A stretch of 12,068 nucleotides of DNA from assembly GCA_016840425.1 (NCBI GenBank), contig JAEOSI010000046.1, forward strand, positions 1-12,068, in the 5' to 3' direction. Positions 8,485 through 12,068 of this stretch are shown piece after piece. Each line of letters begins with the position of its first letter. The first letter of the stretch is position 1. The notes under the pieces were generated by a model. It saw nothing but the letters and a program-made list of their open reading frames with translations, did no database searches and was not told the DNA's origin. The position numbers and the translations under genes were made by a program. Source of the DNA: Candidatus Wukongarchaeum yapensis. Its GTDB lineage: Archaea > Asgardarchaeota > Wukongarchaeia > Wukongarchaeales > Wukongarchaeaceae.

Positions 8485-8886
8485 CCAATAATAATTTAAA
8501 TTAAACAAGTACAATAAATACCTACATTCTTCCATCTTGTAAAGGAAGAATAAATAAAAAAATATAAAAAATAAAATAGAAACACTCAGATTAAAACCTG
8601 GGTAACCGTTTTTGCGTTGTTTTTTATGTTGGGGGTGGGTTTCCTCTTGTGTTTTTTTGCTTTTTCTTTGGAAAAGTAAAAGTATAATAAAAAACAAAGA
8701 AAAGAAAAATTAAAAAATAAAATTTCCTCGGCATTTCTTTAAGATTTCTTTAGAGTTAACGAAGTTTAACAAATAGAAGATTGATAGCAGCTGACTTTGC
8801 AAGTTTTAATACCTTTAGAGTTTTTTCAAAAAAGTTATTCATAGTAAAAATAAACAGAGTATGTGAGAATAGAAGGTGGGATAATT

Positions 8887-9396
8887 ATGAATGTTATGGA
8901 TGCTATTCTTTCCCGGAGAAGTGTTCGTAAATATACCTCCCAAGAGGTATCTGATGATGTGATAAAAGAGTTGTTGGAGGCGGGGATGAGTGCTCCTTCT
9001 GCGGAGAATGAGCGGCCTTGGCATTTTATTGTGATTAGGGATCGGAAGATTCTTGATGAGATCGCTAAATTTCGTTCGGGGTCTGGGATGTTAAAAGATG
9101 CACCGATGGCTGTTTTGGTTTGTGGCGATTCAAAATTGGATATACATAAGGGATGTTTGGTTCAGGACTGTTCAGCGGCCACGGAGAATATTTTGATCGC
9201 GGTTCAAGGAAAGAGACTTGGAGCGGTCTGGTTGGATATTTATTCTAGACGAGATTGGATCACTGCTACTCAAAAACTTTTAGACATTCCAGAACATGTT
9301 ATACCTATCTCCTTGATTCCGATAGGTTATCCGGCAGAAAAAAAGCCTCAGGCAAATCGATACGATGCTTCTAGGGTCCACTATGAACATTGGTAA
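8887..9396 (+). CDS. Nitroreductase family (FMN-dependent) protein, possibly degenerating
   Basis: RRSVRKY, SAPSA.N..PWHF, QDCSAATENIL, LGAVW, IGYP motifs. ATG 8887 follows GGTGG and is preferred over the GTG start at 8863. T/G-rich codon style differs from the A-rich upstream gene. Confidence 0.88.
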   Translation: MNVMDAILSRRSVRKYTSQEVSDDVIKELLEAGMSAPSAENERPWHFIVIRDRKILDEIAKFRSGSGMLKDAPMAVLVCGDSKLDIHKGCLVQDCSAATENILIAVQGKRLGAVWLDIYSRRDWITATQKLLDIPEHVIPISLIPIGYPAEKKPQANRYDASRVHYEHW

Positions 9397-9485
9397 TAGT
9401 TTTTAATGTTATCTTTCGACCCTCGAAAACGCTGAAGAACTACGTGAGAATCGTAGCACCAACCGCAAACAGCCGTTATGCGGTG

Positions 9486-9535
9486 TCGTAGACTTTATAA
9501 ACCATGAAAAAATATCTATCTTCAAAAGTCTACGA
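9486..9535. repeat. Perfect 11-bp inverted repeat with 28-nt spacer
   Basis: TCGTAGACTTT (9486-9496) and AAAGTCTACGA (9525-9535); TTTATAAA (9494-9501) overlaps the left arm. Confidence 0.75.
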
Positions 9536-9644
9536 TCCAAAGAAAACACCCTCAAAGGATCAAAAACTCAAAAAAAGCCCGCAGAGGCCTCCAAAGGGCG
9601 TTTTCTAACGGCCGGGGTAACCTAGCCTGGATTGGGTGCCAGAC

Positions 9645-9685
9645 GTTCCTTTCCTTGATGGTTTGTGTTAGGGAAGGAAGTGGAC
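9645..9685 (+). other. tRNA intron 1 (41 nt, position 32/33)
   Basis: Intron stem TTCCTTTCCT/AGGGAAGGAA. Relaxed BHB: helix CCAG/GTGG (one G-G mismatch), bulges AC^G and AC^T. Confidence 0.8.
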
Positions 9686-9691
9686 TCATAA

Positions 9692-9723
9692 TCTTTTCTT
9701 TCTGTTTTGGGGTTTAGATGTAT
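9692..9723 (+). other. tRNA intron 2 (32 nt, position 38/39)
   Basis: Relaxed BHB: helix TCAT/ATGT (one U-U mismatch), bulges AA^T and AT^T. Removal restores the CUCAUAA loop and the TCTGG stem strand. Confidence 0.75.
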
Positions 9724-9758
9724 TCTGGTTGCGTGGGTTCGAATCCCATCCCCGGCAC

Positions 9759-9766
9759 TTTTTTTT
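9759..9766 (+). terminator. Oligo-T terminator after tRNA-Met
   Basis: T8 run starting 2 nt after the discriminator base. Confidence 0.6.
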
Positions 9767-9998
9767 CTTATAGCGTTTTTTTAGCTGGGTGTAAAATATT
9801 TTTTATTTCATCGAGTCTGGTTTCAGCTTCAAGGGTTGTTTGTTTTTTGATTGTTTTTATTCTTTAGATTTTTCTTATATGGGAGTTTGTAGAAGAAGGG
9901 GTAAAAGTCGTAAAATCTACTTTGTAGTTAGCTCAAATATCAAAAGTTTTTTAAGAGATTGGATATAAGGGAGGTAAAAATTTTGGTTATAGGTAGTT

Positions 9999-10358
9999 GT
10001 GAAAAAGGATAGAACGTTATTTTTTTATGCTTTTGGTGTGTGGTTTATATTTCTTATTGTAGCGCTCATTGATGCAGGGTTTAGAGAGTCGTTTCTCAAA
10101 CCTAAAGTAGGTGAACATTTGGCACATGTTATCAGTATAATCATCTTATCTTCTATCTTTTTTAGTAGTAACATATCTTTTTATAGATAATATAGAAGTT
10201 GGTTATACCGGTACTGATTTGCTTTTGGTTGGAGTGTTTTGGGTAACTCTTGGGGAAAACTACTTGTTGATTATAATATTTTTAGGGGAAAAATATGGGT
10301 TGTAGTATTAATAATCGAATTTATAGCCCTATTATTATTCGGTTCAATACTAAAATAA
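9999..10358 (+). pseudogene. Small multi-TM membrane protein gene disrupted by two frame changes and a probable internal deletion
   Basis: Frame 0 to the T6 run at 10158-10163, then a +1 frame reading FLVVTYLFIDNIEVGYTGTDLLLVGVFWVT, then back to frame 0 at about 10248 reading SWGKLLVDYNIFRGKIWVVVLIIEFIALLLFGSILK-stop (10356-10358). Confidence 0.7.
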
Positions 10359-10388
10359 TAGAATTTAGTGGTTATCCGTCTTACGCTT

Positions 10389-10506
10389 CTAGGCATTTCT
10401 TTCCTTTGGTTGTGTGTTAGGGAAGGAAGTGGACTCATAATCTTTTCTTTCTGTTTTGGGGTTTAGATGTATTCTGGTTGCGCGGGTTCGAATCCCGTCC
10501 CCGGCA
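10389..10506 (+). pseudogene. 5'-truncated second copy of the two-intron tRNA-Met (anticodon arm, both introns, T-arm, acceptor 3' strand)
   Basis: CTAGGC-intron1-TCATAA-intron2-TCTGG-TTGC-GCGGG-TTCGAAT-CCCGT-CCCCGGCA. No D-arm or acceptor 5' strand upstream. Confidence 0.85.
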
Positions 10507-10520
10507 TTCTTTTCTTGTAA

Positions 10521-12068
10521 CTATTTCTCTAGTCGATTTTTTATTAATTGGGTGTAAAATGATTTTATTTCGTCGTTTATTTTTGAGTTTGAATGGTTTT
10601 TAGCCGTTTTTAGCCATGATGGTATTAAAGGATTTATTGCGGGGTATTCACCGGATAATTTACTTAGCAAAACTGAAAAAGCACAAAGGCCTTTAGTCCA
10701 GTTAATTGTGCGGGAATTTCCGGCTTTTTTTGAGAGTTCTTGATAAATAGATAATGTGTTATCATTAAGTTTTAAGCGTAACTCCTCAATATTTTTATCT
10801 TTAATATAATCATCAACGATGGGTAAAATACTAATAATTGAGTTAAAGCAATGTTCTTTGGTCCAAAAAGAAAATAAACAATAATTTTTACATAATGAGG
10901 AGATTGAGTGGAGATCTTTAAAAGAAAAATTTATTTTTTCTGTTTTCGGGGAATGTTTAGGTAAAGATTCGGAAATGGGGGAATAGTTTGATAGGGGATT
11001 GTATGAAAGGCGAGATTTTATTGTGAACGGATCTAAAGAGGCTAGGGAAAAAATAAAATTGGAAACAGGCTTTTGATTAAATTCACGGGTTTTTATTAAG
11101 AAGGGGTAGGGGAAATCAGGTATTACTACGAAGGCTTCTCTTTTCTGCATAACTCGTAAATAACTTTTTTGTTTTAGATCTAAATTCAAAAATTTTGCCG
11201 CTTTTTCATAGTCAAAGGTTGTACGGAAAAAAATCTTAGTTCCGGAATTTGCTAAAATATTGTCAGAGATTATGGGGCGGGTACTAACACTTATTAGGCC
11301 TATTTGAAGAGCTCCCATTAGCATGGCAAAATCTTCAGCTATTAATGTATCTGCGGTGGTTTTTTTTCTAAAAAGATTGGGTATTAAATGCTCTGCATCC
11401 TCGATAACGATTACGTTTTTAAGTTCGCGGCTTCTTTTTCTTAAAGCGGCTTCTGTTTGGATATTGTAGAGTATAATATTGAGCAAAAATTGTAGATCTG
11501 TTTTTGAAACACCGATTGTTCTAAGTAGGCTAAAATCGATGATGATATTGTTTTCAAGAAGTTCCTTCCAGCAAATGTTTGTTTTTTCTACGAAAAATAT
11601 TTTTTTAAGTGGGCCTATAATAAATCGTTTGAACCTTGATTTTATAGCTTCTAAGGTGGCGTTTATTGCGGGTAATTTCTCCCTGCCGAATTCGTTTAAA
11701 ACTTCATAATTTTCAAAAATATCGAGGAATGTTTTAAAGTTTTTATCTTTTAATTTTAGGAACTGTGTCAATATATCTTCTAAAACTCTAAACATCTGAG
11801 GGGTAATTTCAAAGGTGTTCTCAGTACGCATAATTTCTTTAATCATAGACAAAATAAAAGCTGCATGATCTTCAACTGAAACAGAACGGGGAGGATCAAA
11901 AATGTTTATGGCTAGGGGAAATTTAAGGGATCCGGGTAATAAATACTTAAAATTTACGTTTTTAGGAAATAATCCTAAATATTCTTTACCTTTAAAATCA
12001 ATAATAAGTGCTTTTAGCGCTGTTTTTTTCACCAATTGTTCGATTATAGATGCTGTAAGCATTGTTTT
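10521..12068 (-). CDS. HerA/DUF87-like P-loop ATPase (5'-truncated by window edge) with unrecognised C-terminal domain
   Basis: K-T at 12063-12068 directly before M is consistent with the end of a Walker A (GKT), so ATG 12062 is probably internal. Also LIIDFKGKEY, LAINIFDPP, IIIDFS, Walker B-like VIVIEDAEH, and TRP...ILANSGTKIFF. Confidence 0.8.
   Translation of the reverse strand, partial: KTMLTASIIEQLVKKTALKALIIDFKGKEYLGLFPKNVNFKYLLPGSLKFPLAINIFDPPRSVSVEDHAAFILSMIKEIMRTENTFEITPQMFRVLEDILTQFLKLKDKNFKTFLDIFENYEVLNEFGREKLPAINATLEAIKSRFKRFIIGPLKKIFFVEKTNICWKELLENNIIIDFSLLRTIGVSKTDLQFLLNIILYNIQTEAALRKRSRELKNVIVIEDAEHLIPNLFRKKTTADTLIAEDFAMLMGALQIGLISVSTRPIISDNILANSGTKIFFRTTFDYEKAAKFLNLDLKQKSYLRVMQKREAFVVIPDFPYPFLIKTREFNQKPVSNFIFSLASLDPFTIKSRLSYNPLSNYSPISESLPKHSPKTEKINFSFKDLHSISSLCKNYCLFSFWTKEHCFNSIISILPIVDDYIKDKNIEELRLKLNDNTLSIYQELSKKAGNSRTINWTKGLCAFSVLLSKLSGEYPAINPLIPSWLKTAKNHSNSKINDEIKSFYTQLIKNRLEK

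Follow-up and report, generated by a model that had tools for sequence, protein, structure and literature searches.

A 3′ tRNA-Met fragment in Candidatus Wukongarchaeum yapensis, probably an inert scar of recombination with DNA of a related lineage

Partial tRNA copies beside insertions are already well known. Archaeal integrative elements leave partial tRNA repeats, attL and attR, as exemplified by SSV1 (44 bp of a tRNA-Arg) and the pNOB8-type plasmids (PMC3293823, PMC8371274), and mismatches between attP and attB are inherited in the reconstituted archaeal tRNA genes (PMC3293823). In Caldiarchaeum subterraneum, a 1.8-kb insertion lies between a tRNA-Thr(GGU) fragment and a gene with several introns, the alleles that recombine differ in intron content, and it was proposed that mobile DNA brings tRNA sequence variants (Sugahara et al. 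2012, PMC3293823). Partial tRNA fragments, which flank small insertions, have been ascribed to integration or rearrangement, and for the split tRNAs of Nanoarchaeum equitans, Caldivirga maquilingensis and the Desulfurococcales there is no intact gene, and the 5′ half is separate and bears a complementary trailer (Chan et al. 2011, PMC3218864). Introns and splits have been suggested to protect tRNA genes from integration (Randau and Soll, cited in PMC3218864), and a 2026 preprint gives no general route for the arrival of introns in Asgard tRNA genes (10.64898/2026.10.13.758758).

The locus described here is a further example. The window, i.e. the whole stretch of DNA that was analysed, is 12,068 nt long and constitutes an entire contig (C259) of a 92%-complete, 2.16-Mb archaeal metagenome-assembled genome (MAG) of 277 contigs. 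It holds a working tRNA(CAU) gene and, at the other border of a 749-bp insert, a partial 3′ copy of tRNA-Met. The features are as follows.

8596-8607, plus strand: 12-nt 5′ stub of the original tRNA-Met gene, ACCTGGGTAACC, identical to tRNA positions 1-12 at 10 of the 12 nt
8608-9610, plus strand: putative TnpB-element remnant, with a T-rich left end, a nitroreductase ORF and an omegaRNA-like leader at the right end
9611-9757, plus strand: working tRNA(CAU) gene, the sole full copy in the genome, whose spliced form folds as a cloverleaf; exon 1 9611-9644, intron 1 9645-9685 (position 32/33), micro-exon of 6 nt 9686-9691, intron 2 9692-9723 (position 38/39), exon 3 9724-9757; T-stem pair U50-A64
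9758-9848, plus strand: diverged "ghost" covering the spacer and the final ~12-30 ATPase codons (local alignment, tblastn)
9849-10388, plus strand: orphan insert DNA of ~540 bp, with one 63-codon ORF (9999-10190) and hydrophobic frame pieces
10389-10506, plus strand: tRNA-Met 3′ fragment of 118 nt (tRNA positions 27-73 and both introns), delimited by a direct repeat and alignments; positions 27-32 10389-10394, intron 1 10395-10434, micro-exon 10435-10440, intron 2 10441-10472, exon 3 10473-10506; T-stem pair C50-G64
10507-12068, minus strand: host flank and HerA/DUF87-like ATPase gene, stop at 10521 (Pfam), collinear with the sister lineages

As with the archaeal att repeats, one border has an intact tRNA gene and the other a partial copy that extends to the 3′ end, relatives lack the insertion and mismatches of the partner have been carried into the reconstituted gene. 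Unlike those repeats, there is no integrase, whole or split, the insert is only 749 bp long, the repeat spans two introns and the end of a neighbouring gene, and the partner resembles the chromosome of a relative rather than an attP. The tRNA-Thr locus of Caldiarchaeum likewise combines a tRNA fragment with a multi-intron working gene around a small insertion, and alleles recombine there too. In that organism, however, the fragment comes from the 5′ side and a recombinase is encoded in the insert, whereas here it is a 3′ piece, there is no recombinase and a 12-nt stub is found on the far side of a TnpB remnant. The fragment also resembles the split tRNAs in being a piece from near the anticodon arm with bulge-helix-bulge (BHB) elements but differs from them in that an intact gene is present, there is no 5′ half and both strands of the intron helix lie within the fragment. 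What is special here is the recombinase-free setting, a repeat that runs through two introns into the neighbouring gene and a TnpB-type 5′ stub at the same tRNA gene.

Removal of the two introns (9645-9685 and 9692-9723) from the working gene leaves a 74-nt cloverleaf, which is called as tRNA-Met(CAT) by ARAGORN. The raw window yields no tRNA by default ARAGORN or Rfam because of the two introns, and the Arg(TCT) call obtained for this gene with the intron option of ARAGORN is a miscall. Both BHB motifs, read by hand, are relaxed, with one central-helix mismatch each. Since it has G1-C72 the tRNA is not initiator-like, and based on sequence the gene is the genome's single elongator-type tRNA(CAU), for which Met and Ile2 are not separated. 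Introns are present in nearly every tRNA gene of this genome, and the tRNA-Met orthologues of the sister lineages contain the same two introns.

The fragment lies within a direct repeat (9664-9764 and 10413-10513, 96% identity), which alignment extends leftwards to 9639 and 10389, corresponding to tRNA position 27. The discriminator A at 10506 is the 3′ end of the fragment. The boundary between positions 26 and 27 is sharp: further left there are 8 matches in 28 collinear positions and the local alignment does not score above shuffles, which rules out a full-length pseudogene. No 5′ acceptor strand for the fragment was found within 330 nt. Both strands of the intron-1 helix are inside the fragment (10396-10405 and 10419-10428), and the outer helix of BHB1 (24-26 with 34-36) is missing. 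The conserved tRNA leader with its TATA-like box is absent before the fragment; a TATA-like TTTATAG is found at 10320, 63 nt upstream, in an AT-rich region.

Compared with the full gene, the fragment has C28>T (10390), A31>G (10393), G>A at the first position of intron 1 (10395), C>T in the intron-1 stem (TTCC>TTTC), indels in the intron-1 loop and, in the T-stem, T50>C (10483) paired with A64>G (10497). All of these had been named in the preliminary description, as had the fact that no stem is broken, and the differences do leave every stem paired. They are unevenly distributed. A 70-nt core containing the 3′ half of intron 1, the 6-nt micro-exon and the whole of intron 2 is without differences between the copies (9664-9733 and 10413-10482), such that from 5′ to 3′ there are 5 differences in 24 nt, none in 70 nt, one compensatory pair and then a flank diverged by ~25%. 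This mosaic contradicts uniform decay of a duplicate made in place. When decay was simulated with six random substitutions per trial, 20% of trials left all pairs intact, 2.2% gave a two-sided compensatory pair and 0.8% did both; the pattern of differences exceeds chance decay.

Intact genes from relatives that lack the insert account for much of this pattern. U50-A64 is found in the intact empty-site genes of three lineages (G001, Ga0209427_10152503 and the group L052/L060/L061), and C50-G64 together with the A at the first position of intron 1, as in the fragment, in those of one lineage (L053 and L062); other tRNAs of this genome also use both T-stem forms. As C50-G64 occurs in intact genes, the compensatory pair, which the preliminary description had called the strongest evidence, is inherited allelic variation. 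Judged by their distribution among the relatives, the structure-preserving differences are mostly standing alleles and not evidence of selection on the fragment itself. Private to the fragment are C28>T, A31>G, the C>T in the stem and one indel in the loop, all within 24 nt of its 5′ edge; each of the three transitions turns a Watson-Crick pair into G-U, and together with the indel they look like decay. The left copy has the sister-lineage states at 28, 31 and the intron stem and agrees with three of the four lineages at the first intron position and at 50-64. What is odd is thus the left end of the right copy together with its T-arm and, in the left copy, the flank; a single reciprocal recombination would give just this arrangement. 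The intron-loop state TTAGGG is common to both copies and is found in no sister lineage, which suggests that the donor was closely related to this species or that gene conversion later homogenised the 70-nt core.

The preliminary description had also proposed that a relative's functional allele was swapped in and the host's 3′ part displaced, and that relatives without the insert carrying only U50-A64 would argue against this. The lineage-specific insertion and the different natural alleles bear out the scar in outline. On the direction of the exchange the evidence is mixed: three lineages without the insert have U50-A64 and one has C50-G64, and the flank/ATPase tree of four lineages is a star (the three topologies have 17, 15 and 15 informative sites) with this species as the outlier.

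The insert itself begins with the ghost, which opens with two oligo-T runs (T8 and T7). Its local alignment to 10507-10630 scores 43; shuffles give 22.9 ± 3.6 and no other window of the contig exceeds 27, so the tRNA repeat extends, in diverged form, ~90 nt past the tRNA, which is absent from the earlier description. In a tblastn search of the insert with the ATPase, the only match is C-terminal (...FYTQL...). The ghost is ~25% diverged with indels, beyond any sampled sister lineage; it deviates from the flanks of all of them and lacks 14 nt, and the flank of the second copy agrees with them. A tandem duplication of 749 bp was rejected, as similarity to the ATPase is limited to the first ~90 nt of the insert.

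The remainder of the insert is orphan DNA. Three overlapping frame pieces on its plus strand (9993-10190, 10141-10305 and 10218-10358) are hydrophobic and look like a frameshifted small membrane-protein gene. Homologues of the 63-codon ORF were found only in its own strain, and the frames of the insert had no match in Pfam (any frame of 9758-10462) or the ESM Atlas, nor the insert in Rfam. The orphan DNA has no second copy in this genome or in G001, and the insert has no match in viral contigs (two scans) or at the loci of the relatives. By Pfam, the insert and the rest of the contig are free of integrase, recombinase and other mobile-element genes; matches to the integrase family PF00589 are confined to other contigs (C133, C189 and C192).

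Empty sites were found on seven contigs from four sister lineages (G001:C119; Ga0209427_10152503, L049; Ga0209427_10072654, L052, with L060 and L061; ZHAO22-1 L053 and L062), in which an intact two-intron tRNA-Met gene adjoins the spacer that follows the fragment in the window and then the ATPase gene. These flanks are ~85-92% identical to those of the window. Based on this comparison, the 749 bp are inserted in this species only, among the lineages compared. The insert is also found in five other assemblies of the species (L051 and L055-L058; 99.6-99.98% identical), with zero differences across 9107-10900. The contigs come from other samples and assemblers (JGI, ENA and NCBI) and four of them are 35-41 kb long. 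The identical structure in five independent assemblies shows that it is not an assembly artefact, and the insertion is fixed in the species.

In two sequencing runs from Logan, a unitig with U50 and the insert (9704-10442) is unbranched, at a depth of 14.1 and 12.6 against flanks of ~22 and 20, and in a third run the flanks are identical and the insert is almost uncovered; such per-contig depths and uncovered parts are not evidence, and one left-flank contig is equally low. A fourth run contains a ~92% variant of the junction between insert and fragment, at a depth of 4.6, which is too low to be informative. A subpopulation with C50-G64 and without the insert, considered from the Logan contigs, was set aside, the five other assemblies all carrying the insert.

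To the right of the fragment, the ATPase gene (product of 884 amino acid residues) runs on into contig C276, towards tRNA-Ala and the rpoB operon, so this side of the fragment is ordinary chromosome. The contig order is C137 (reversed), C259 and C276, joined by exact overlaps of 144 nt at window positions 1 and 12068, and the tRNA-Met locus is placed between the EF-2/asparagine-synthase region and the rpoB operon. In one relative (L049:1-390) the ATPase gene is broken ~270 nt before its end and a small winged-helix-like ORF is found instead. On these comparisons the tRNA-Met locus is a rearrangement hot spot.

The upstream side of the working gene has a history of its own. The 5′ stub stands directly after the context that precedes the first tRNA nucleotide in the pristine relatives L062 and L060. 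In the putative TnpB-element remnant that follows, the nitroreductase ORF (8863-9396, Pfam) has a GC content of ~43%, compared with ~32% around it, and occupies the site of a TnpB-like ORF in L049; the leader (~9400-9610) includes a TATA-like CTTTATAAA at 9493-9501. A leader of ~110-130 nt precedes nine tRNA genes (contigs C3, C89, C110, C123, C137, C189, C232, C259 and C268), and in four of the nine, including tRNA-Met, 11-14 nt of the tRNA start recur 365-2248 nt upstream. Two contigs of one lineage, compared at L053:2900-3330 and L062:3070-3330, have flanks that are 100% identical over 345 nt and different upstream parts: L053 has the TnpB leader before tRNA-Met and a different intron-1 loop, and L062 is pristine. 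Arrival of the element is thus accompanied by replacement within the tRNA gene, whose 5′ portion seems to be co-converted when the element is gained.

A T-arm scan revealed only two 3′ tRNA fragments in the genome. The second is the following.

C123:21472-21579: 3′ fragment that also starts at position 27 (full gene at C137:19818-19946), with a TPR-repeat gene between

Its tRNA is a type-II tRNA, probably Ser(CGA), for which the ARAGORN call is Arg-TCG. The arrangement is common to this genome (G000, loci L005 and L006) and G001 (C59, L050). Between the two species the exon parts match at 75 of 76 positions, against identities of 78% in the 100 nt upstream, 81% in the middle of the intron and 94% in the 100 nt downstream; this conservation of the exons leaves some room for a function or a shared targeted mechanism.

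Taken together, these sequence comparisons make it probable that the fragment is an inert leftover from a Campbell-type insertion of DNA from a related lineage. The incoming DNA would have consisted of a diverged tRNA-Met 27-73, the downstream spacer and the terminal part of the ATPase gene, with ~540 bp of unrelated sequence behind them, and one reciprocal (Campbell-type) crossover with the resident locus would have taken place inside the shared tRNA segment. The product would have a complete working tRNA gene on the left, the foreign spacer ghost and orphan DNA in the middle and, on the right, the partial 3′ copy joined to the true host flank. Candidate agents are an integrase acting in trans, homologous recombination or break repair. 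We infer this topology from the distribution of the odd parts, and the fragment is apparently not used by the cell. Counting against a scar of this kind are the lack of a recombinase gene at the locus and of a donor match in the databases and relatives searched, and the second 3′ fragment, which also starts at position 27 and has better conserved exon parts.

A classical att scar, left by a virus or plasmid whose tyrosine integrase used an att site in the anticodon stem and which was later deleted down to 749 bp, is an unlikely source of the same structure. Anticodon-type att repeats usually extend from position 27 to the 3′ end of the tRNA, exactly the span of the fragment, and the second fragment of the genome begins at the same position. 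Integrase-family genes are found elsewhere in the genome (C192 and C189), and SSV1 and the pNOB8-type elements provide precedents (PMC3293823). The insert, however, holds nothing that resembles an element gene and its sequence is found in no viral contig, the repeat continues ~90 nt beyond the tRNA into the end of a chromosomal neighbour gene, which points to a chromosomal donor locus, and the usual symmetric core site is absent since two introns split the anticodon stem in the DNA. The att scar of the preliminary description therefore holds for the partial 3′ tRNA repeat and an insertion absent from relatives but not for an integrase or mobile-element gene. Duplication in place (a long target duplication, or slippage during replication) with subsequent neutral decay is extremely unlikely. 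It would explain the private intron-loop state and the identical 70-nt core common to both copies, but the decay is unequal (2 sites, or 2%, in the 3′ 94 nt of the fragment against ~25% and a 14-nt deletion in the ghost), the fragment matches a natural allele at three sites, the compensatory pattern would have to be one of the 0.8% and the ATPase region is not repeated in tandem with a 749-bp period. It is quite improbable, too, that the fragment is a TnpB footprint, in which a break in the resident tRNA gene would have been repaired by copying a replacement gene and downstream DNA from a foreign allele, the repaired copy would have been rejoined to the unrepaired right end at position 27 and the old gene would have been left as the stub plus 27-73. 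TnpB of ISDra2 cuts 15-21 bp from the target-adjacent motif (TAM), and the fragment starts 17 nt past the end of the stub, which fits that distance. The stub does lie upstream of the TnpB-element remnant, both tRNA genes with a fragment have the element's leader and the leader-bearing gene of L053 has a replaced intron-1 loop despite flanks identical to those of L062. Seven of the nine leader-bearing tRNA genes are, however, without a 3′ fragment, an alternative register would place the cut near position 12-16, the second case would need a distance of 14 nt and has no stub that we could find, and the 540 bp of orphan DNA are unaccounted for. That both position-27 fragments, behind TnpB-fronted tRNA genes, are footprints of RNA-guided cutting or homing is accordingly a long shot; if true, it would be a new way of tRNA gene fragmentation and of allele and intron exchange between Asgard lineages.

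The preliminary description had offered trans-splicing as the more novel reading, and more broadly the fragment might be a functional 3′ piece, either spliced in trans to exon 1 to give a C50-G64 isoform or serving as a processing or termination signal or a cassette-excision site. Such a function is very unlikely. Fragment exon 3 together with exons 1 and 2 would make a valid tRNA-Met (with this exon swapped in, the cloverleaf and the ARAGORN tRNA-Met(CAT) call are likewise obtained), all stems are unbroken, the TATA-like TTTATAG stands upstream at 10320 and the other fragment locus keeps its exon parts in two species. A separate 5′ half, however, is not encoded elsewhere in the genome: BLAST searches of the 92%-complete genome with the full gene and with its first 28 nt find only the working gene and other tRNAs, the sole trace being the degenerate 12-nt stub. 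With its own TTTCTTTCCT strand retained, the fragment would form BHB1 in cis, as a 10-bp hairpin that would outcompete pairing with the transcript of the full gene, and splicing in cis would yield only a 27-73 RNA. The outer helix of BHB1 and the conserved tRNA leader and promoter are absent, the private changes at the 5′ edge all weaken Watson-Crick pairs to G-U, and descent from functional alleles accounts for the states that are preserved. A trans-splicing partner is thus not borne out, and on the sequence evidence the locus does not support the existence of a new split-tRNA class.

A scar of recombination bears on the proposed protection of tRNA genes by their introns, as the exchange would have run through two introns and a 6-nt micro-exon and even such heavy interruption would not have blocked it. 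It would also mean that sister lineages exchange tRNA-Met alleles, including intron sequence and the T-stem pair, which would be a concrete route for the turnover of introns and alleles. With a 5′ stub, a working gene and a 3′ remnant at one locus, the tRNA-Met region of this archaeon would be a good test case for TnpB-driven rearrangement.
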